Source: a virus
Taxonomy: Duplodnaviria; Caudoviricetes
IMG/VR virus record: IMGVR_UViG_3300035148_000223
Coordinates: 1 to 57,053 of that record
DNA length: 57,053 bases
Direction: 5' to 3' (one strand)
Below are positions 6,378 to 17,324 of this stretch, in pieces. Below the pieces are notes generated by a model. That model was given only the letters and a program-made list of their open reading frames with translations, did not search any database and was not told the DNA's origin. Each line of letters starts with the position of its first letter. The first letter of the stretch is position 1. Both the position numbers and the translations under genes were made by a program.

Positions 6378-6703
6378 GCGGTCGGCTCCGAGACGAGCGT
6401 GTACATCCAGACGCCTTTCGAGACAAGGTCGCGCTCGATGCCGTAGCCTTGCTGCTTCAACTCGAAGATGCGCGCCCCGTAACGGTAGCAGATGCCGTTC
6501 AGCACGACGTTCGTCGCCGGTCCCTCGCGGAGCCTCGCGAGGACGCGGTCCTTGGCGGTCGCGAGTCGCGAGGCTTCGTCGGCTTGCTGCTCGGCATGGG
6601 TCTGCCAGACGGTCTGCCGCTCCGCTGGCGTGGGGAGGTCGGCGGGCCGGGTGACGGTGTAGCCGTCCTCGGCCAGACACGAGAAGAGGTCTGTCTGGTT
6701 CAC
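6374..6703 (-). CDS. Winged-helix DNA-binding protein
   Basis: RVLARL...RYGARIFELKQQGYGI; TAGGAGGACCC RBS, GTG start. Confidence 0.65.
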   Translation of the reverse strand: MNQTDLFSCLAEDGYTVTRPADLPTPAERQTVWQTHAEQQADEASRLATAKDRVLARLREGPATNVVLNGICYRYGARIFELKQQGYGIERDLVSKGVWMYTLVSEPTA

Positions 6704-7533
6704 TTGGGTCCTCCTAGCGCGCGACGCTGACTCGGGCCGGAGAGGGACCACATGCTCGCGCGCTCGCGCAAGCGGTCGTAGACGGCCATCCCGAACGCCG
6801 CCGTCATCGCCTTCGGCACCTCGGACGCCTCGGTCTCGGCCGGGATGTTGAGGACGAAGATGGTTGGGCGGTTGTTCTTCTGGCGCGCATCGAGCAGGGC
6901 GCGGAAGAACTCCTGCTGCTTGTCGGTCGTCGGCGTCTTCGTCAACTCGTCGATCACGAGGACGTCGTAGGTGGCGAGAATGTCGAGCAGTTCGTACTCG
7001 GTCTCGCCGTGGTCGTCGTCGCGGTGGCCGAAGGTCGCATTCCACCGCATCCAGATCACCTTCGCGTCGGTGTAGAGTCCGGTCTCGGTGCCTTTCTCCA
7101 GTGACCCGCGCAGCATGGCGATGGCCAGCCCGGACTTGCCGGTGCCGTTCGGGCCAAACAGCACGACGTCTGGCCGTTTGTCGCGCGGCTTGGCGAGCCA
7201 TTCACCCCCGCGCGCGGCCAGCGTCGGCTTGAGCAGGTCGCTCTTGTACGACGAGAGGGACCATGTGAGGCAGGCTTCCGGCACGCCCGCCTTGCGGAGC
7301 CGCTCGAAGAACACGCCATCGACAGACGGGGGGCCGCTGGGCCAGAGTTCGCGAAGCTGGCTGGCCGAGAGAACCTCGTCGGCCCGCTTGCTGGCGCGTT
7401 TGCGTGCGCCCGCCGGACAGAGGCAGCGCACGACGAGGAAGGTGCCGTTGAAGTCCTGCACGCGCAGCCAGCCGTCTGTGCAGTGCGGACATTCGCGGCC
7501 GACGTGATCGGCCGAGATGGCGGTGTAGCTCAT
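6700..7533 (-). CDS. DnaC/IstB-like helicase loader ATPase
   Basis: N-terminal CPHC...CLC zinc motif; Walker A GPNGTGKS; Walker B VLVIDEL; YDRLRE. Confidence 0.88.
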   Translation of the reverse strand: MSYTAISADHVGRECPHCTDGWLRVQDFNGTFLVVRCLCPAGARKRASKRADEVLSASQLRELWPSGPPSVDGVFFERLRKAGVPEACLTWSLSSYKSDLLKPTLAARGGEWLAKPRDKRPDVVLFGPNGTGKSGLAIAMLRGSLEKGTETGLYTDAKVIWMRWNATFGHRDDDHGETEYELLDILATYDVLVIDELTKTPTTDKQQEFFRALLDARQKNNRPTIFVLNIPAETEASEVPKAMTAAFGMAVYDRLRERASMWSLSGPSQRRALGGPK

Positions 7534-8282
7534 TCGTCCTCCATGAGAATCTGGGGCGGGGGCGCGCTCAGAACGTGCTTCCGATTGCGCGCCTCGGTCT
7601 GCCGCCGCAGGTCGTCGGCGTTCTGGGGCTTCTGCTGGGCGGCGAGTTTGTTCCAGCATGACGCGAGGATGGCCATGTCCTTCCCGCTCTGCTGGATGAA
7701 GCGGTCGTGGCTGTCGAAGAGCCGGGGGAGCATCGCGACGACGGCGTCGTACCCGTGCTGCTGAATCAGCCGCTTGGCGTGGGCGGCGTCCTTGCCGCTG
7801 TAGTGGGGCTTGGTTCCCACTTCTGCCCGGAAGAGCTTTTCGTGTTCCGAGAGCAGGGCCTTGATGGTGTGGGCGTTCCCCGTACGTACTGATGGATCTT
7901 GTGACGGATCTACTGACGGATCGGGTGACACCCGTGTCACCCCAGAGGTGACAGGTACGTCACCCCTAGTGGTCTCCGACGTCACCCCCAGATGTTGTGG
8001 GGTGTCAGATTGGCACCCCAAGAGATGAAGCCGCCAGACGGTCGGGAACCGGCTCGTCGCGGGCTTGTCCACCGCGATATAGCCTGCCGTTTCAAGGTCG
8101 CGCAGGCATCGTTGTACTGACCGCACGCTGATGTCGCAATCGGTCGCGATGGTCTTGACCGACGGATAGGAGCTTCGCCCTTGGTCGTTCGCGCAATCGG
8201 CCAGCTTGAGGAGAACGAGTCGGTGGGACGCCGAGGCGAGGCCCCGGACGTCCCACACGGCGGTCATGTAGCGGATGCTCAC
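7530..8282 (-). CDS. Replication initiator protein (N-terminal winged HTH)
   Basis: LVLLKLADCAND...SYPSVKTIATDCDISVRSVQRCLRDLETAGYI; immediately upstream of the DnaC-like gene. Confidence 0.82.
   Translation of the reverse strand: MSIRYMTAVWDVRGLASASHRLVLLKLADCANDQGRSSYPSVKTIATDCDISVRSVQRCLRDLETAGYIAVDKPATSRFPTVWRLHLLGCQSDTPQHLGVTSETTRGDVPVTSGVTRVSPDPSVDPSQDPSVRTGNAHTIKALLSEHEKLFRAEVGTKPHYSGKDAAHAKRLIQQHGYDAVVAMLPRLFDSHDRFIQQSGKDMAILASCWNKLAAQQKPQNADDLRRQTEARNRKHVLSAPPPQILMEDE
7925..8020. repeat. Iteron-like GTCACCCC/GGTGACA repeats inside the initiator gene (candidate origin)
   Basis: GGTGACACCCGTGTCACCC, GGTGACA, CGTCACCCC (twice), GGGGTGTCA and GGCACCCC cluster in the initiator linker, as in lambdoid origins. 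Confidence 0.5.
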
Positions 8283-9169
8283 TTGGCCCTCGTCACGAAC
8301 GTCGAGTCCTTCATCGCGCGCAGGCCCGTGACGTTGAGGTCCTTCTGCTGGCTCCGGGCCAGCGCGTCGAGGAGCTTGGACACGGGCGCGACCATCTCCA
8401 GCGTCGTGAGGCGCACGTCCGCCTCGGTCGCGAAGCGGGAGAGGTATTTCTGGATGACCTGCCCCGTGGGGTGGGCCTTCAACTGCGGCGACATGGACCG
8501 GAGCATTTCGGCCGCGACGCACGCGAGGATGAAGCTGTTGGGGTCATCGACCACGGCGCTCCACGTCGTACGCGTGTATTCGCCGTCCACCTTGCCGCCC
8601 GCTTCTGGCAGGGCCACGGGCTTGACGTTCAGCGGAGCCTCGGCCACCGACGCGGCCTGCTCTTTCAGTGCCGCCTTGACGGACTTGTCGGTGGTCGCCT
8701 TGGCGGCGGCGGCGAGTGCGGCCAGTTCTACGCGCCGCTTCTCGGCCGCTTCCGCCTCGGCCTTGCGCCGGGCCTCTGCCAACTCCCGCTCGCGCTCCTC
8801 GGCCACGCGCGCGTCGTATGCCGTGATGCTGCGGTTGCAGAGTTCTTTCTCGGACTTCGCGGGGTCAAGGAACGAGTCGCGCGTCTGGCTGATGATGGCG
8901 ACGACGTTCTTCGCCGGGTCCAGCATCTTCTTGAACGTGGCCTCGACGAGCTTGATCATCGACTGCGCGTCGCGGTAGCGCAGGGCCACCGTCTCGCGCA
9001 TCTTGGGCGTGGAGATGGGGTAGTAGACGCGGCCATCGGGTCCGGGGACCAACGCGGGCAGCGCGCTGTCGTGGGTGAACGTCGTGAACGCCTTCACGAG
9101 TTCCTCGGGCGGACGCGTGTCGATGGTGGTGACGGTCGGTGCCGCCGCAGAGCTAGACGTCTTAGCCAT
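8279..9169 (-). CDS. Coiled-coil protein in the recombination module
   Basis: GGAGGACCC RBS; long Glu/Ala/Arg-rich coiled coil. Confidence 0.7.
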   Translation of the reverse strand: MAKTSSSAAAPTVTTIDTRPPEELVKAFTTFTHDSALPALVPGPDGRVYYPISTPKMRETVALRYRDAQSMIKLVEATFKKMLDPAKNVVAIISQTRDSFLDPAKSEKELCNRSITAYDARVAEERERELAEARRKAEAEAAEKRRVELAALAAAAKATTDKSVKAALKEQAASVAEAPLNVKPVALPEAGGKVDGEYTRTTWSAVVDDPNSFILACVAAEMLRSMSPQLKAHPTGQVIQKYLSRFATEADVRLTTLEMVAPVSKLLDALARSQQKDLNVTGLRAMKDSTFVTRAK

Positions 9170-9773
9170 TGTGGGTCCTCCAGTACGATTCGAGCCGAGA
9201 AAGAAACACAGTATAGTCTTCCGGGTCTTCGTATTCACGCACGATGAGTTGGCCGTCGCGCAGATAGACCCCTAGCCGCCTGCGGGGCAGCGAGCCACGG
9301 TAGGGCGCGAGGAGGTCGTAGGCGGCGAGTTGCACGCCGTGATGCTTCGCGGGCGCGCACGTCTTGATGTCCAGCACGACTTCCCCCGCGTAGCGCGAGG
9401 TCGTGAGGATGCCGATGCGGTCCACGATGCCCGCGACACGTAGGTCGTCGCGGTAGAGGGGCGTCTCGATATGCGTGAAGTGCGGGCGGTTGACGGCCTT
9501 CCAGACCGCCCACTGGCGCAGGTAGCGTTGGTCCTCGGCGCTGGCCGAGGCGATGATGCGCCGCTGGTTCTGCTCGCTGGCAAGGTCCATCTTCACGGTC
9601 AGCTTGTGGATGCGCGTGCCGCGCTCGGCGGGACGCCCGTCCGACAGGAACTCCAGTTGGTCCTTGACCGTCTTCGGCACCGAAAGCATGGTGACGTGTG
9701 GGACGCGCACGCCCTCGAAGGTGAAGGCGTGCGCGGTCGCGTCAAAGCACAGGGGAGAGGGTCCGCGTGTCAT
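9162..9773 (-). CDS. PD-(D/E)XK exonuclease (RecB/Cas4-like fold)
   Basis: ERGTRIH, IETPLY, AGIVDRI, VLDIKT and QLAAY motifs. Confidence 0.85.
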   Translation of the reverse strand: MTRGPSPLCFDATAHAFTFEGVRVPHVTMLSVPKTVKDQLEFLSDGRPAERGTRIHKLTVKMDLASEQNQRRIIASASAEDQRYLRQWAVWKAVNRPHFTHIETPLYRDDLRVAGIVDRIGILTTSRYAGEVVLDIKTCAPAKHHGVQLAAYDLLAPYRGSLPRRRLGVYLRDGQLIVREYEDPEDYTVFLSRLESYWRTHNG

Positions 9774-10696
9774 TCGCCGGGCCGTTTCTTCGAGGCGAGC
9801 CACCCCAGCACGTCCTCGAAGTAGATGCTGGGCAGGTCGGCCGAGTGATCGACGTTGTACTTGAGCTTGATGTGTTTCTTCACGTCGTCGGGGTCACGGC
9901 CCGCCTCTTGGAGCTTGACCCACAGGAAATTGCGCTGCTTCTGGCTGATGGGATGCGGAGCCGAGGCGACCGGCTTGTCGCTCTTCCACTTGTCGGCGTT
10001 CGGGCTGTGCGGGGCCACCCGAATCTCCTGCCACTTCGGCGTCACGTCCACGCGCCGCCAGACGGCTTGCTCTTCGTTCTTGACGACGGCGATGACTCGG
10101 ATGCAGTTCGCCTTGATGAAGCGGTCCACGAACCGGCGGTCCCAGCACTCCGAGGCGATGCCGAGGTCCTTGCAGCACCGCATCAGCGCGTTGGACTTGA
10201 TCACTTCGAGCGCGGTCGCCTTCGAGACGCGCTTGTTGCTCGGGTTGTATTCGGCCTCGCCCCACGCGACGGCGCGCACGAGGTCATGCACGAGCAGCGC
10301 CCACTGCTGCATCAGCGTGGTGCCGTTGTCGTCCATGATGGGCAGGTTCAGGTTCTTCAGCGACCAGCCGCCGCTGCCGAAGACCGCTGTCAGTCTGCGG
10401 CGATACTCGACCTGCGGGAAGTAGATTTCCCCCGTGGGCAGGATGTCGATCAGGTCCGGGTCCACCGGGGCCGTGAGCGCCTTGTGCTGCTTCTCGGTGA
10501 ACGGTTCCTTGCCCCACGGGTAGCCGATGTAGGGCGCGGACGTGAGGGCAATCGGCTCGCTCGGGGTGGGCGGCGGCGGCGCACTGATGACCGTGATGAC
10601 GCCGTGGTCGCCGTGTGGCGCGCCGACGAGCGCGCGGGGTTCTACGCGCCGGGCGAGAGCGGTGGTGCGCGCAGGGGTCTTTTTCTTCGTCTTCAT
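9770..10696 (-). CDS. Mgm101/Rad52-family single-strand annealing protein
   Basis: IDILPTGEIYFPQVEYRRRLTAVFGSGGW...SNALMRCCKDLGIASECWD matches the Mgm101 core. Confidence 0.85.
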   Translation of the reverse strand: MKTKKKTPARTTALARRVEPRALVGAPHGDHGVITVISAPPPPTPSEPIALTSAPYIGYPWGKEPFTEKQHKALTAPVDPDLIDILPTGEIYFPQVEYRRRLTAVFGSGGWSLKNLNLPIMDDNGTTLMQQWALLVHDLVRAVAWGEAEYNPSNKRVSKATALEVIKSNALMRCCKDLGIASECWDRRFVDRFIKANCIRVIAVVKNEEQAVWRRVDVTPKWQEIRVAPHSPNADKWKSDKPVASAPHPISQKQRNFLWVKLQEAGRDPDDVKKHIKLKYNVDHSADLPSIYFEDVLGWLASKKRPGE

Positions 10697-10832
10697 GGGT
10701 CCTCCGTTTGCGTTTCGGGAAAAGAGCGGGTAGGATGGCCGTGGGTGCGGGTCCTCCAACTCTTACCCACTTCGGGCCTGACCACTGAACCTCCTGCCGG
10801 AGACCCAGCGTCAGGCCCGTTGCTTGTACGGG

Positions 10833-11132: not shown

Positions 11133-11480
11133 TTACAGGTCATCCGTCGCGAAGCTCACGGCGCGAGGCGCGCGGATGTTGAACGTGACGCCGTTGACGC
11201 GCACGGCGGTTGTGGTGGAAGGCGGCTGCGTACGCGTGGGCGTGACGACGGGCGCACGCGCGAGCCGCACGGTGTCCTCGCGGTTCATGCGCTGGCTCGC
11301 GCGCCATGCGTCGATATGGCGGCAGGTCTTGTCGCCTTTCTTGAAGCGGTAGCTCGGGCAGGAACACCCGATGGTGCCTGTCGAGACGTGCCGCTTGAGT
11401 TCCCATTCCCGTCCGGGGTCTGAGTCGCTGTCGATGTAGGCGACGTGATCCCAGAGCATGCTACGGCGTCTTGGTCGCAC
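11133..11480 (-). CDS. SWIM zinc-finger protein
   Basis: CSCPSYRFKKGDKTCRHI (CxCx(n)CxH). Confidence 0.75.
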   Translation of the reverse strand: MRPRRRSMLWDHVAYIDSDSDPGREWELKRHVSTGTIGCSCPSYRFKKGDKTCRHIDAWRASQRMNREDTVRLARAPVVTPTRTQPPSTTTAVRVNGVTFNIRAPRAVSFATDDL

Positions 11481-11670
11481 GGGTCCTCCCTTCTGGGGCG
11501 GCGACAAGGATGACGCGCTTGATGTCGCGCGCGTTCGCCTCGGCCACGCGCCGGGCGTCGGTCTCGTCCGTGTACACTTCGACGGTCGTTCCCAAGAGAC
11601 CGAAGGTCCCTACGGGCTTGTGCGTGGTGCGCGAGACGAGAATCCAGCCGGGTCCGAATACCTTGGGCAT
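11461..11670 (-). CDS. Hypothetical protein
   Basis: TAGGAGGACCCATG start cassette. Confidence 0.6.
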   Translation of the reverse strand: MPKVFGPGWILVSRTTHKPVGTFGLLGTTVEVYTDETDARRVAEANARDIKRVILVAAPEGRTRATKTP

Positions 11671-12223: not shown

Positions 12224-12691
12224 CTATAGGTCTTGCGGGTTGAACGTGATGTCGCGGACGCGTTCTACCCCCGGCTCCGAGAGCTTGGGGGTGATGCGGT
12301 TGATGGCGCGCTCGGTGCGGTCGATAGCGGCCGTGGCACGCTTGACGGTGTAGAGACTGCCCTCCTCCGCGCCCGTGCGGAGCTTGCGCCACGCCGCTTC
12401 GAGGCGCTTTTCGAGGCGGGCCTTCTGCGCCAGCAGCATGCTGGCGCGGTAGAGGTCTGTCCGCTTGAAGGCGGCGAGGGCCGCGCGCCGCTCGGCCTTC
12501 GTCTGGGCCTTGCGCGCCTCGGCTCGCCGCTTCCGAAGCTGGTCGTAGCCCCAGCGGATGTTGCGCCTGCACAGGCGGCAGGCATAGGCGCGGGACGCCA
12601 ACTTCGAGGTCTGGTTGGTCGTCCCGCACCACGGGCAATCGACGTAGGCCGCGCGCAGTTCACGAGGCTGAGTCGGCACAGTACACCTCAT
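12224..12691 (-). CDS. Zinc-ribbon plus coiled-coil protein
   Basis: CPWC...CRLC motif; basic coiled coil. Confidence 0.6.
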   Translation of the reverse strand: MRCTVPTQPRELRAAYVDCPWCGTTNQTSKLASRAYACRLCRRNIRWGYDQLRKRRAEARKAQTKAERRAALAAFKRTDLYRASMLLAQKARLEKRLEAAWRKLRTGAEEGSLYTVKRATAAIDRTERAINRITPKLSEPGVERVRDITFNPQDL

Positions 12692-13515: not shown

Positions 13516-14016
13516 CTACTGAAGCTCTTTCACGCCCAGTTCGCGGGCGATGAGGGCGATGAGGTTGCGGGTCTGGACGTTCGCGTTGACGATGTCTTGT
13601 AGGCCGAGGGCGAGCGCCGTGAGCCGCTCCTCGATGTGGGTGATGCGCTGCGCGACGGCGAGCAGCGTGTCGGTGTTCTGCTTGAGGGCTTTCCGGACGC
13701 CGTGTTCCCCGTTGGTCGGGAAGGGCAGCGCCGGTTCTACGGGCTGCGCCGAGGCAGCGGTCTTGTGGCGCTTGGCCTCGCGCGCCGCGCGCCGCGCCTC
13801 ACGCTTGGCGGCAGCGTCCGCCAGTCGGGCTTTCCTCGCGTCGAGGCCCGCCTTGTAGGCGGCGACGTTCTCGCGCGTGGCGAGCCGGTGGATGCGCTGT
13901 CGCCCCTCGCCCACGGCCACGCTCGGGATGCGGCCAACCTGCAAGAGGTGATTCACGGTGGTCGTCGTGTAGCCGAGGAAGTCAGCGATCTGGATCGGGG
14001 TCATCAGGTCAGACAT
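13516..14016 (-). CDS. Excisionase/MerR-like HTH protein with coiled-coil tail
   Basis: LMTPIQIADFLGYTTTTVNHLLQVGRIPSV. Confidence 0.7.
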   Translation of the reverse strand: MSDLMTPIQIADFLGYTTTTVNHLLQVGRIPSVAVGEGRQRIHRLATRENVAAYKAGLDARKARLADAAAKREARRAAREAKRHKTAASAQPVEPALPFPTNGEHGVRKALKQNTDTLLAVAQRITHIEERLTALALGLQDIVNANVQTRNLIALIARELGVKELQ

Positions 14017-14035: not shown

Positions 14036-14070
14036 GGGCGTTTACACGGGTACTACCCATGTAAACGCCC
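14036..14070. promoter_or_regulatory. 35-bp near-perfect palindrome upstream of the HTH gene (operator or terminator)
   Basis: GGGCGTTTACACGGGTA-C-TACCCATGTAAACGCCC, 17-bp arms with one mismatch. Confidence 0.6.
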
Positions 14071-14086
14071 GATTGGTGCGAATCGA

Positions 14087-15166
14087 CTAGAGGTCTGTCG
14101 CCGAGAACGAGATGGCGCGGGTCCGCTCGACGACCATCGCGTCCACGGCGGTCTTGATCTGCGAGATGCTCTTGGCCACCTTCGCGCGCACGCCGCCGTC
14201 GGCATCGCGGAGGTCGTCCGGGGTGATGCCCGCCATCACCGCCTTGGCCTTCTGGACGAGCGCCGTGAGGCCCTCGTCGTTCGTGACGTTGCGGAGCGGG
14301 AAGTCCTCGAAGAACTCCGTCAGGTTGGTGACGAGCGAGTCGCGGAAGACCTTCGGCTTGCCGTCCGGGCCGGTCTGGAGCCGTTCCGCCATGTGGGCGA
14401 TGACCTCGCTGAACGCCTCGCTCATGCCGAGGCGGATGTCGGACACGACCTGCGCCAGCTTGGCCTCGGTCTTCTTCACGGCCTCGCCGTAGATGGCCGC
14501 GTCAATCGACTTCAACTGGTCCGGCACCTCGTCGATGTCCATGAAGAAGTACTCGAACTTGAACTTGCTGGCGACGACCTCCAGCTTCGGGTAGTCGGCC
14601 GGGTCGTACTGGTCGGCCAGCAGGGCGGCGGCTTCCTGCTTCAGGGCCGCGTAGCGGTCAAGGAACGCCTCGACCAACTGCTTGCGCTGGGTCTCGCGCT
14701 CGACGAGACCGTCGTAGATGGCCCGGACCTTCGCGATGGGGATGCGGTAGAGGCCCGCCATCAGGTAGGACGGCAGCGCGGCGGACGAGAGCCATATCTG
14801 GCAGGCGAGGTCGAATGCCGAGATGGCCTTGAGTTCCGGGGAGTCGAGCAGGCTCTTCTCCATCTTCAGCATCTTCTTCTCGGCAGCGGTCTGCACCTTC
14901 GAGAGGTCCGCCTTCTTCTCGTTGTTGAACCGGCGGGTGACGAGGCGCATGCCGATGGTCGCGCCCTTGACGACGGCCACGTCCGGGGTCTTGGTCTTGG
15001 CCGCGAGGATTTCCTTCGTGCGCGTGTCCGCCGTGTCCTTCGTCATCGGCGGCACCTTCGGCGCGGTTCTACGCGCGAACCGAGTGACGGTCTCGGTCTT
15101 CCGCATGGTGAACTTGCGGGCAGTGGTCTTGCGGGACGTGGTCTTGCGAGCAGTGGTCTTTTTCAC
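14087..15166 (-). CDS. DUF3150-like protein
   Basis: GLYRIP, YDPADYP and KPKVFRDSLVTNLTEFFEDFPLRNV motifs; last gene of the AAA operon. Confidence 0.6.
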   Translation of the reverse strand: MKKTTARKTTSRKTTARKFTMRKTETVTRFARRTAPKVPPMTKDTADTRTKEILAAKTKTPDVAVVKGATIGMRLVTRRFNNEKKADLSKVQTAAEKKMLKMEKSLLDSPELKAISAFDLACQIWLSSAALPSYLMAGLYRIPIAKVRAIYDGLVERETQRKQLVEAFLDRYAALKQEAAALLADQYDPADYPKLEVVASKFKFEYFFMDIDEVPDQLKSIDAAIYGEAVKKTEAKLAQVVSDIRLGMSEAFSEVIAHMAERLQTGPDGKPKVFRDSLVTNLTEFFEDFPLRNVTNDEGLTALVQKAKAVMAGITPDDLRDADGGVRAKVAKSISQIKTAVDAMVVERTRAISFSATDL

Positions 15167-15192
15167 GGTCGGGTCCTCCAGTTAGCAGCCGT

Positions 15193-15396
15193 CTAGTGCG
15201 AGTGGTGGTCGTGGGTGGTGCCGTCCGCGTGCGTGTGGACGTGGCCCGCGCGGGCCTTGACGGTGGTCTCGCCGCCGAGGTCCAAGCTGATCGTCTTCAG
15301 CAGGGCATCGGCATTCAGGTGGTTCGGCCCGGAGATGCGGCCGGTGGTGATCTTCACGTCGCCGTCCTCGGTGATTTCGATGCGGATGTCGTCCAC
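15193..15396 (-). CDS. DUF2997-like small protein with His-rich tail
   Basis: IRIEITEDGDVKITT...G..H...LGG pattern; canonical position next to DUF1257-like and AAA genes. Confidence 0.65.
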   Translation of the reverse strand: MDDIRIEITEDGDVKITTGRISGPNHLNADALLKTISLDLGGETTVKARAGHVHTHADGTTHDHHSH

Positions 15397-15400
15397 GGGG

Positions 15401-15727
15401 CTACCTCTTCGTGACCGCGTAGGTGTTCTTGCCGGTGGCCTTCAGCGACCAACCGAACTGCTTCGCGCGCTTCGCCACGACCTGATGCGCGTAGGCCCGC
15501 TTCGCGACGGGCGCGAACTCAGCGGCGTCCATGCTGGAGCCGCGCATCGTCACGCGTCCGTTCTCGAAGGAGCCGGACACGTAGCGGCCCTCGACCTCCC
15601 CGCTGAACGCGAGGTAGGCCGAGGATTCGGACACGCGCAGGCCAAGGGCCTTGAGGCCCTTGGCGAGGAGCGCGATGTCCGCGACGTCCAAGTTCACAGA
15701 GGTCTGGCGGACAGAATCACACGGCAT
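15401..15727 (-). CDS. DUF1257 (Ycf35)-like protein
   Basis: DIALLAKGLKALG...AYAHQVVAKRAKQFGW; follows the AAA ATPase. Confidence 0.6.
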   Translation of the reverse strand: MPCDSVRQTSVNLDVADIALLAKGLKALGLRVSESSAYLAFSGEVEGRYVSGSFENGRVTMRGSSMDAAEFAPVAKRAYAHQVVAKRAKQFGWSLKATGKNTYAVTKR

Positions 15728-15729
15728 GG

Positions 15730-17271
15730 TTACGACTCCTTCATGTCGGCGGTCTTGGCGATGAACGCCATCTCCGGCAGGGAGATAGCGCGCCCGCCGG
15801 ACGGGGGAAGAGCTTCCTGCCCCTGCGCCATGTAGACGCCGGGGACGTTGGCCGACAGGTAGCGCCCGTTGCACTCCTGCCGCAGCCGTTCGATCCGATC
15901 CGCCGCCGACCGCGCGAGCGGCACGACGTACGCCGCCGCGTCGAGCAGGCTGATGTCCAGCATCGACGCGAGGTAGCACAACTGCTTGATCTCGGCTCCG
16001 GTCCAGCCCTTGATGTTCGGGAGGGGCTGTTTCTTCAGGCCGTATTTCTTGAGGAAGATGGGGACGATCTTCGCCTGCTCGGCCTCGCTCGGCAGGTCGA
16101 AGAAGAAGGTGCCAAGCGTGAACCGGCGGCGGAACTCCGGCGGCAGCACGCCAATCGAATTGCAGGTCGCGATCCACAGGGCCTTGCCGCCGCTGATGGC
16201 CTGAATGACGTCGTTCGCATTCAGGATGTTGGCCTCGCTCTGGCCGACGAGCGAGTTCTTCATCGCGCCGAGGTCGTAGAGGATCGTCGGGACCTTGGCC
16301 TCGTTGCCCGCCGCCTTCGCGACGAGCGACTTCGCGGAGCCGGGGTGACCGATGAACATGAGGCCGCGCGCCTCGGTGTTCTGGAGGTAGGTGAGCAGTG
16401 CGCCAAGCTGGAATTGCGAGGTGCCGCTCGAATCGCCCGTGCCGTTGGTGCCGCTGCCCGCGAGCGCCTTTTCAATCTCGTCCATCCAGATGACGGCCGA
16501 GTAGGGGTCTTTCCCGGTGCGGATGCTCGTGATGAAGTTCTTCGCGACGTCGCAGCCACCGATGTCCTCGAAGGTCTCGGTGCCACGGTAGACGGACAGG
16601 CCCGCGACCTGTTCGATGGCCGCGTACTTCTGCTGCCAGAGCGACGGCACGTCCAGTCCATTCTCGTTGAGGCAGAGTGAGACGGCGGTCTCGGCCGAGA
16701 ATGCGGCCAACCCGGAGAGGGCATCGGCCACGCGACGTTCTACGTCGCCCGCGAGTGGGGGCAGGTTCGCGCCCACCATGAGTTTGTTCGCGATGCCGAC
16801 GAGCGCCGCGCGGTCGGGGCGGGTTTCGTCCAGCACGATGATGTCGCCCTGAAGCTCGGGCGGGGTCTTCTCTCCCGGCGGGGTGACGAGGACGAGCGTG
16901 CGCCGGTTCTGCTTGTAGAGGTCGCGCAGGTTCCAGATCCCCTGAAGCACGCCGGGGTCTGTCCAGAGCTTGTGGGCGTTGAGGACGAAGACGATGACGC
17001 GCTCCGGGGCCTTCGTCAGCTTGCGGAGCATGTCCACGGGGTTGCCGGTCGCGATGGCCGGGTCCTCGCCGCCGTTCAACTCGGTCGCGACGGGCGAACC
17101 GGCCGGGTTGAGCGGCATGATGCCGCGCACGATGTCGTGAACGAGCGCCGGGCTGGACTTGCCCAGCGTGTCGAGCAGGATGCCCACCAGCGAGGCGGGG
17201 TCCGGCGTCCGGGCCACCAGCAAGGGGGCCGAGGTGCGCCGGGCGGCGATGAAGAGGTCTTTCAGAGTCAT
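15730..17271 (-). CDS. Ycf46-like AAA+ ATPase
   Basis: Degenerate N-terminal AAA domain (IWNLRD...PPELQ); FEDIGG; WMDEIEKALAG; Walker A GHPGSAKS; ATCN...LPPEFRRRF; GWTGAEI. Confidence 0.85.
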   Translation of the reverse strand: MTLKDLFIAARRTSAPLLVARTPDPASLVGILLDTLGKSSPALVHDIVRGIMPLNPAGSPVATELNGGEDPAIATGNPVDMLRKLTKAPERVIVFVLNAHKLWTDPGVLQGIWNLRDLYKQNRRTLVLVTPPGEKTPPELQGDIIVLDETRPDRAALVGIANKLMVGANLPPLAGDVERRVADALSGLAAFSAETAVSLCLNENGLDVPSLWQQKYAAIEQVAGLSVYRGTETFEDIGGCDVAKNFITSIRTGKDPYSAVIWMDEIEKALAGSGTNGTGDSSGTSQFQLGALLTYLQNTEARGLMFIGHPGSAKSLVAKAAGNEAKVPTILYDLGAMKNSLVGQSEANILNANDVIQAISGGKALWIATCNSIGVLPPEFRRRFTLGTFFFDLPSEAEQAKIVPIFLKKYGLKKQPLPNIKGWTGAEIKQLCYLASMLDISLLDAAAYVVPLARSAADRIERLRQECNGRYLSANVPGVYMAQGQEALPPSGGRAISLPEMAFIAKTADMKES

Positions 17272-17295
17272 TGTGCGGTCCTCCATACAACGGGC

Positions 17296-17324
17296 ATTAT
17301 ATCACAGGCAGAAAACGTCAGCAA
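17296..17324 (-). promoter_or_regulatory. Strong sigma70-like promoter for the AAA operon
   Basis: TTGCTG-17 bp-TATAAT with extended -10 TG. Confidence 0.8.

Follow-up and report, generated by a model that had tools for sequence, protein, structure and literature searches.

Cdc48/p97/VCP, Rix7 and NVL are AAA+ proteins with two stacked AAA-fold domains and a lid, and AAA+ proteins of this type (type II) are recognized by two nucleotide-binding AAA domains together with an N-terminal adaptor-binding domain. A second point of comparison is Ycf46 of cyanobacteria and plastids with the small proteins Ycf35, a member of DUF1257 (DUF, domain of unknown function), and DUF2997. To our knowledge, the cyanobacterial set has no DUF3150 partner. 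DUF2997 and ycf35 are given as neighbors in cyanobacteria in one report (PMC4284462), and another presents Ycf46 as a stress-induced, KaiC-interacting ATPase (PMC13683863), which is a cellular rather than a mobile-element role. Here we describe a four-gene module on the minus strand of a virus of the Caudoviricetes, IMG/VR record IMGVR_UViG_3300035148_000223, whose 57,053 bases (G+C content ~66%, CheckV completeness ~70%) are referred to below as the window. The module encodes an AAA+ ATPase and three proteins resembling DUF1257, DUF2997 and DUF3150, and thus shares with the cyanobacterial and plastid set the Pfam families of its two small partners. We read this module, widespread on phages and plasmids, as a classical AAA+ machine that combines a rewired core with uncharacterized partners of its own.

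Closer relatives are carried by other mobile elements. Modules on the Candidatus Manganitrophus plasmid CP114554 (MPW17_22100-22120) and in Aeromonas phage HJ05 (H10PHJ05_65-68) draw on the same four families and lie on one strand. CP114554 carries AAA, DUF1257, DUF2997 and DUF3150 genes under NCBI's own names; in HJ05, Pfam recognizes DUF1257 and DUF2997 in genes 67 and 68, which adjoin the ATPase gene, and no DUF3150-like gene was detected within the 9.3 kb examined. Homology between the ATPases of these modules and that of the window extends through the D1-like domain, each of the two core blocks and the lid, and the two groups form sister sets in a tree. They keep Walker A, Walker B and sensor 1 in the normal order, whereas the window group has two blocks swapped. 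The likeness to Ycf46 consists of the JGI label on these normal-order relatives, 'SpoVK/Ycf46/Vps4 family', and of the DUF1257 and DUF2997 neighbors.

Gene content and linkage of the module

The four genes run head to tail within 17,324-14,036, with intergenic gaps of 2, 4 and 26 nucleotides (nt), which bears out the tight linkage described for them in a preliminary description made from the sequence alone. The first encodes the ATPase (15730..17286; 518 amino acids [aa] from the first ATG). Its start is likely to be the second ATG, at 17271, because the Shine-Dalgarno (SD) sequence GGAGGA at 17284-17279 lies 7 nt ahead of it and the database gene call P0002 has the corresponding length of 513 aa. 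The ATPase gene is followed by genes for a 108-aa DUF1257-like (Ycf35-like) protein of a short sub-type (15401..15727), a 67-aa DUF2997-like protein (15193..15396) and a 359-aa DUF3150-like protein (14087..15166).

A megablast of the region against phages gave no match, and a scan of viral contigs with the single ATPase sequence returned one relative only. Using an alignment instead, we found relatives encoded on 257 viral contigs. Eighty viral loci were drawn by ATPase alignment, for a total of 83 loci, and an iterated hidden Markov model (HMM) search with the four window proteins was run against all open reading frames (ORFs) of these loci. The ATPase was found in 82 of them, the DUF1257-like protein in 68, the DUF2997-like protein in 66 and the DUF3150-like protein in 75. 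Each partner matched once per locus and always on the ATPase strand, and the four genes co-occur on one strand in most of the 82 loci, so the linkage is conserved well beyond the window. Gene order is flexible: there are at least 11 arrangements, with the window order, ATP>S108>S67>L359 (S108, S67 and L359 being the 108-aa, 67-aa and 359-aa families), seen 27 times and ATP>L359>S108>S67 seen 24 times. One feature is constant: wherever both small partners occur (62 loci), the DUF1257-like gene immediately precedes the DUF2997-like one.

Block order in the ATPase core

In AAA+ cores the chain runs from strand 1/Walker A through strand 2 and strand 3/Walker B to strand 4/sensor 1, and we know of no other exception to this order. 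The window ATPase departs from it. VIWMDEIEK (aa 264-273) precedes the P-loop GHPGSAKS (aa 313-320), and the P-loop block is followed not by a second Walker B but by ALWIATCN, the sensor-1 strand; the inverted order had been noted, and a noncanonical alignment anticipated, in the preliminary description. The core can be divided into a Walker B strand and helix (aa 264-304; 16375..16497), a Walker A block (aa 306-365; 16192..16371) comprising strand 1, the P-loop, helix 1, strand 2, the pore-loop SLVG and helix 2, and a sensor-1/lid part (aa 369-476; 15859..16182) with ATCN (N376), the RRRF Arg fingers (R387/R388), strand 5 and the lid. Pfam AAA (PF00004) scores 38.8 bits against the protein (cut-off 21.2) and aligns aa 309-357 with positions 1-49 of its 131 only, a fragmentary view which follows from the swapped blocks. 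The ATPase also matches phrog_8638 at 8.7e-42.

The normal-order ATPases show where each block would otherwise stand. In HJ05, the block after helix 2 reads VALVDEVDK...GDSGVGARVLGTMLTFMQE, and alignment places its window counterpart, VIWMDEIEK...GDSSGTSQFQLGALLTYLQN, ahead of the P-loop block. Segment BLAST against the CP114554 ATPase (L084) and the normal-order locus ATPases L003 and L002 matched window aa 264-304 to L084 304-340 (7e-6), L003 348-385 (5e-9) and L002 353-390 (1e-4), and window aa 306-365 to the preceding stretches L084 242-301 (2e-11), L003 288-346 (8e-16) and L002 290-350 (8e-10). Window aa 372-481 matched L084 348-458 (8e-23). The Walker A block, at window aa 310-365, also matches D2 of p97, and phmmer against p97 gave an out-of-order match as well, in which the two flanking stretches are individually insignificant. 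Judged from these alignments, two neighboring core blocks have been turned from the order AB into BA, a clean swap relative to the normal-order relatives. An earlier suggestion was that the AAA domain might be permuted or composite. Alignment and segment BLAST favor permutation; in place of a composite domain, the protein appears to have two AAA domains in tandem, the first D1-like and dead, the second an active D2 within which the blocks are locally swapped.

The rearrangement is not peculiar to the window. Walker B comes first in 79 of the 82 locus ATPases, 76 by regular expression and three (L032, L057 and L082) on inspection, these being counted as swapped after a spurious downstream DEIE was discounted; L002 and L003 have the normal order and L055 is not assignable. 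The swapped group amounts to 981 clusters at E <= 1e-5 among 8000 candidates scored. In an unrooted tree built from a chosen sample, with 22 rows from the swapped group and 19 of normal order, one branch separates the two sets with a Shimodaira-Hasegawa-like approximate likelihood ratio test (SH-aLRT) support of 100, and it persists without the swapped columns 392-560, a topology compatible with a single origin of the swapped core.

The catalytic residues have been kept through the rearrangement. D269 of Walker B, K319 of Walker A, N376 of sensor 1 and the Arg finger R388 are invariant in a 70-row alignment (A5, ~45% identity), in which E270, S320 and R387 are nearly invariant; in an 11-row alignment (A1), D269 and E270 are both invariant. 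The hallmarks of a classical AAA+ protein are therefore present, namely Walker A, a Walker B DE pair, the sensor-1 Asn and two Arg fingers, and the double Arg finger and sensor-1 Asn are motifs of the classical clade shared with Cdc48/p97. The P-loop itself is atypical in having Ala for the consensus Gly before the Lys, a substitution shared by most of the swapped group, whose commonest form is GPPGAAKS. A candidate likeness elsewhere is Pseudomonas phage vB_PaeP_GZMU_A1002, on the strength of Table 1 of its report (PMC12870095); a domain match confined to the P-loop is what swapped-core ATPases show.

Predicted fold of the ATPase

An AlphaFold model of the ATPase was obtained with high confidence (predicted local distance difference test [pLDDT] 92.4, predicted template modeling score [pTM] 0.87), and its best solved look-alikes in Foldseek are type II AAA+ proteins (Rix7, p97, NVL and Cdc48; E ~1e-13). 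Residues 5-498 align to p97 209-775, spanning D1 and D2, with Z 18.3 and a root-mean-square deviation (rmsd) of 5.0 over 402 aligned residues. The second half (226-476) aligns to the p97 D2 chain 3cf0_A with Z 16.1 and rmsd 2.6 over 203 residues, and the model aligns to the Vps4 chain 6bmf_B with Z 16.7. The predicted structure has the alpha/beta core and helical lid expected of the fold and, like Cdc48/p97/VCP, Rix7 and NVL, two stacked AAA-fold domains. To go by aligned length and rmsd, the only measures used here, the three-dimensional core of D2 is probably unchanged by the swap.

The first of the two domains (aa 1-225; 16612..17286) is degenerate, with TPDPA at the place of the P-loop and NAH at that of Walker B, and it retains many nearly invariant polar residues despite TPDPA. 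We read the modeled D1-like domain as nucleotide-dead and the second half as an active, rewired D2. The protein thus differs from type II enzymes in having a D1 without a P-loop and no N-terminal domain. Set beside p97 in particular, it lacks the N-terminal double-psi-barrel and the D1 P-loop, the order within D2 is swapped, and pore-loop 1 is aliphatic, being Leu-Val in the alignment where p97 D2 has Trp-Phe. The partners encoded with it are unrelated to the UBX or Ufd1-Npl4 adaptors of p97.

A rewired core might instead be a broken one. On this account, rewiring destroyed the fold, leaving an ATPase that has lost catalysis or serves only as a scaffold, and the conservation is structural only. 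The otherwise fixed order of the AAA+ core, the Gly-to-Ala change in the P-loop and the recognition by Pfam of no more than the first 49 profile positions would all fit such a history. The residues that remain invariant across 70 sequences are, however, those of catalysis, with the Walker B Glu nearly so; the model is confident, its D2 half superimposes on p97 D2 at 2.6 Å; and the swapped group is large. We therefore consider a dead scaffold very unlikely. The chain order of the AAA+ core is regarded as fixed, and here a large natural family keeps its catalytic residues with strand 3 ahead of strand 1; the AAA+ fold, it would seem, tolerates internal rewiring. In a literature search that did not extend to supplements and most subscription journals, no paper was found to describe the phage module or an AAA core with its blocks swapped.

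Partner families and their two sub-types

The 108-, 67- and 359-aa proteins of the window gave no direct match in Pfam, PHROG, NCBIfam or PADLOC. PF06868 (DUF1257) did not match the 108-aa protein even at E <= 10, nor was it found in a six-frame search, and BLASTP produced no alignment between the small window proteins and gp102 or gp101, their counterparts in Tunturiibacter phage Tunturi_3. Weak rows for RlmL_1st (E 0.012) and T3SS_TC (E 0.027) were treated as chance. The families were identified through relatives. PF06868 matches 30 of 63 aligned relatives of the 108-aa protein, PF11211 (DUF2997) matches 33 of 62 relatives of the 67-aa protein, and PF11348 (DUF3150) matches 26 of 63 relatives of the 359-aa protein. 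For the two small partners, the Pfam-silent members are the window-type halves of their families, and hhalign joins the window sub-type to the other with a probability of 97% (E 1e-10) in the case of the 108-aa proteins and 96% (E 2.4e-9) in that of the 67-aa proteins. Their genes can accordingly be placed, by way of relatives only, as remote members of DUF1257 and DUF2997. The model of the 359-aa protein (pLDDT 86.4) has as its best BFVD match a 'DUF3150 domain-containing protein' (E 2.8e-14, template modeling [TM] scores 0.60/0.72), and PF11348 is found on 13-29% of the members of the Atlas clusters nearest to it. Taken as statements of remote family membership, then, the four guesses made in the preliminary description were correct. 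Among the matches listed in a literature search on DUF2997, DUF1257 and DUF3150, none concerned phage modules.

The loci fall into two sub-types, which differ in the small partners. The G..G..C motif of DUF2997 is absent from all 30 window-type loci and present in 35/36 loci of the other type. In its place, every window-type protein (30/30) has at least four His among its last 20 residues, where proteins of the other type have few; the window protein lacks the family cysteine and has seven His there, in agreement with the His-rich tail (encoded at 15196-15246) first reported for it. The DUF1257-like protein is shorter in the window type, with a median of 110 aa (30 loci) as opposed to 153 aa (36 loci). 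A fifth protein of ~90 aa, which clustering of the locus proteins identified as a family with the motif RASHVEP, occurs in 29/36 loci of the other type and in 0/30 of the window type, and an HMM of this family found nothing below E 1 among all ORFs of the window, in a record that is ~70% complete. Because the cysteine and RASHVEP are lost together with the gain of the His tail, the pattern suggests that one shared metal-binding role is filled in two ways.

The nearest cultured carrier, Tunturi_3 (PP885686), belongs to the cysteine/RASHVEP sub-type, unlike the window phage. Its gp103-gp96 include a swapped-core ATPase (38% identity over 93% of the query), Pfam-positive DUF1257 (gp102) and DUF2997 (gp101), a RASHVEP-type ORF and a DUF3150-like gene after the ATPase. 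The last of these, gp96 (L001 8699-9658), is recorded as an 'HNH endonuclease', yet it is a clear DUF3150-like homolog (2e-94, iterated search), and the recorded name is therefore probably wrong. A 92-aa 'ATP-dependent DNA ligase' and a 198-aa 'portal protein' nearby also have names that are doubtful by size.

For the DUF3150-like protein itself, relatives in the PDB were at chance level only (profile E >= 0.2; Foldseek best E 0.29), and the best hits in a VIA structure search (Z 9.0) were generic helical bundles. The model consists of an alpha/beta-plus-helical core behind an N-terminus of ~35 aa (15062-15166) that is disordered (pLDDT ~45) and made up of a basic Thr/Arg/Lys repeat, TTARKTTSRKTTARK.... 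This N-terminus could bind nucleic acid. A complex prediction for the ATPase with the DUF3150-like protein scored 0.00; it was run without controls and bears neither way.

A shared C-terminal tail

The sequence R-x-[IV]-[ST]-F-x3-D-L forms the C-terminus of three proteins encoded in the window. They are the DUF3150-like protein (RAISFSATDL, 14090-14119) and two proteins located further along the minus strand. One is a 155-aa zinc-ribbon/coiled protein (12224..12691) with CxxC...CxxC, a coiled region and the tail RDITFNPQDL, for which we found no Pfam match and no homolog among the 83 loci. The other, of 124 aa (11133..11507), carries CxCx12CxH, with CSCPSYRFKKGDKTCRH present, and the tail RAVSFATDDL; it has no Pfam match at E <= 0.01. 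CxCxnCxH is the signature of SWIM zinc fingers. Homologs of this SWIM-like protein occur in 10 loci, with CxC..CxH in 10/10 and a tail-like end in 7/10. The ATPase has a related motif, RAISL (aa 499-503; 15778..15792), followed by 15 more residues; R499 is nearly invariant in a region of pLDDT ~50. The 837 six-frame ORFs of the window contain five matches to R.[IV][ST]F, of which three are the gene ends with x3-DL after the motif. Tagged proteins of the kind first described as 'R..F...DL' do exist, although the spacing is R...F and not R..F.

Across the loci, we scored a strict tail, defined as R-x-[IVF]-x-hydrophobic with at most five further residues, at least one of them acidic. It is found on 54/75 DUF3150-like proteins and 18/82 ATPases, on none of the DUF1257-like (0/68) or DUF2997-like (0/66) proteins, and on 27/2161 other same-strand ORFs, most of which lie beside the module and which include the seven SWIM-like homologs. 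A looser motif is met at 64/70 ATPase ends and 64/70 DUF3150-like ends, as against 297/991 background ORFs. The ATPase, the DUF3150-like protein and the two downstream zinc proteins share the tail, and for this reason we read the system as extending past the four genes, to 11133.

Tail regions have pLDDT ~50 in the models of both the ATPase and the DUF3150-like protein and are therefore probably disordered. AAA+ unfoldases classically recognize their substrates by disordered peptides at the C-terminus, which raises the question of whether the tail marks proteins for unfolding or degradation. If it does, the substrates would be the DUF3150-like, SWIM-like and zinc-ribbon proteins, unfolded by the ATPase alone or fed by it to a host protease; such a scheme could time their activity, and the ATPase's own tail would serve self-regulation. 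It would also account for tail-bearing proteins that differ between loci while the ATPase is constant. Against it, the DUF3150-like protein is present in 75/82 loci, as conserved and as linked as the ATPase, and is a better fit for a subunit; clustering revealed no protease gene in the conserved set; and the motif is on the ATPase too. We hold the tag to be an unlikely function of the tail.

A model for the machine

We think there is about an even chance that the module encodes a p97-like remodeling ring to which adaptors dock by their tails and which is assisted by two small metal-binding cofactors, the whole being directed at a protein or nucleoprotein target. The ATPase, like Cdc48/p97, would most likely form a ring, presumably a hexamer, and remodel or unfold proteins with dedicated partners. 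The active D2, with its Walker B unit encoded ahead of its Walker A unit, would drive the motor, and the dead D1-like domain would probably be a scaffold and docking surface. The tail peptide, R-x-[IV]-[ST]-[FL] with acidic residues or DL, would be a docking address for one common receptor. This could be the conserved D1-like domain, or else DUF1257 and DUF2997 as a pair, two families in which the tail is never seen. DUF2997 probably binds metal, through its His tail here and through the cysteine and the extra RASHVEP protein in the sister sub-type. The machine would probably act early in infection, on a protein or nucleoprotein target.

Several observations weigh against this model. Substrate threading is not assured, because pore-loop 1 is Leu-Val, and the P-loop has Ala for Gly before its Lys. 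The tail motif of the ATPase is not terminal in the window phage, and the tails could mark substrates instead of partners. Tails of the ATPase and the DUF3150-like protein from the same locus share 62 identities, as compared with 38.2 +/- 4.6 when shuffled (0/5000 shuffles reach 62); this likeness speaks for the model, but it is confounded, and inflated, by the shared descent of loci. No solved structure related to the DUF3150-like fold gives a clue to its role. Finally, a phage-specific takeover role is not required, because the module is also found on plasmids.

Carriage by plasmids brings up a different function. Normal-order versions with the same partners occur there, as on CP114554, and the ATPase has weak local matches in PADLOC and NCBIfam to the anti-phage ATPase IetA/IteA; the module could thus serve mobile elements in defense or exclusion, directed at competing phages or plasmids, or cause abortive infection or addiction, instead of promoting infection. 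The IetA match is, however, confined to the P-loop block (aa 306-356, E 2.6e-6), and the NCBIfam IteA score is 21.4 bits against a cut-off of 510. An IetAS/IteA system combines a full-length IetA-type ATPase with an IetS protease; the window ATPase is not of that kind, and neither an IetS-type protease nor another effector belongs to the conserved set. The partners have no PADLOC match, and relatives are carried by 257 viral contigs. A role in defense accordingly seems improbable to us.

Returning to the remodeling ring, a more specific version can be drawn, which we advance as a doubtful though still reasonable conjecture. In it, the module belongs to an undescribed class of mobile-element machines, in which a rewired p97-like ring recruits exchangeable adaptors, some zinc-finger and some helical, by means of a portable C-terminal address peptide, mounts them on a small metal-binding DUF1257-DUF2997 hub and extracts a host or rival protein from DNA early in infection. 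Through the gene set, three families without assigned function (DUFs) and two orphan genes of chloroplasts and cyanobacteria are connected with what is probably a single machine, and if an address-peptide machine is what they form, this would be the first mechanistic model for ycf46 and ycf35. The shared tail peptide, the two sub-types and the cultured carrier Tunturi_3 provide experimental handles.

Expression signals and neighboring genes

A promoter-like site precedes the ATPase gene on the minus strand (17296..17324), with TTGCTG at 17324-17319, a 17-nt spacer, TATAAT at 17301-17296 and TG at 17304-17303. The extended -10 element, TGATATAAT (17304-17296), is the window's sole TGnTATAAT, and TGNTATAAT occurs once in the 57 kb where 0.05 occurrences are expected. 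A consensus promoter scan of the window listed no promoter, the site at 17296-17324 included. The site had been called near-consensus; the two elements, their spacing and the extended -10 are indeed present, and the term is overstated because the -35 agrees with TTGACA at only 3/6 positions.

At the other end, a 35-nt hairpin on the minus strand (14036..14070; 16-bp stem, 3-nt loop) separates the DUF3150-like gene from its downstream neighbor, whose SD follows the hairpin immediately. A 76-nt stretch spanning it folds at -36.6 kcal/mol (z -6.5). The hairpin has no U-tract and may stop or stabilize the transcript, which does not amount to proof that the operon ends there. We also considered a repeated operator and rejected it, because no second copy of the hairpin exists in the window. 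The palindrome said to close the operon is thus real, and its role as a boundary is not borne out: past it, 1.4-3 kb further along the same strand, lie the two tail-bearing partner genes, so the operon is not self-contained as first thought.

Directly past the hairpin, 13516-14016 on the minus strand encodes a 166-aa protein that begins with a helix-turn-helix and has a coiled region toward its C-terminus. Its PHROG matches, to excisionase/regulator and small-terminase families, are weak (1.7e-5 and 5.9e-5), and it has no homolog among the 83 loci. Further downstream on the same strand (6700-10759) are genes for a Mgm101/Rad52-type single-strand annealing protein (9770-10759; 1.4e-38), a PD-(D/E)XK nuclease (9162-9803) and an IstB/DnaC-like ATPase (6700-7659). 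From ~23 kb the window is filled by large plus-strand ORFs running in one direction (513, 464, 824 and up to 1101 aa), unannotated, which we read as the structural arm. The module is therefore part of the phage arm that carries replication and recombination genes, and this position suggests early or middle expression. In the CP114554 locus (L084 3855-4280), JAB-domain and HNH-motif proteins are encoded just upstream of the module and a Fic protein downstream.

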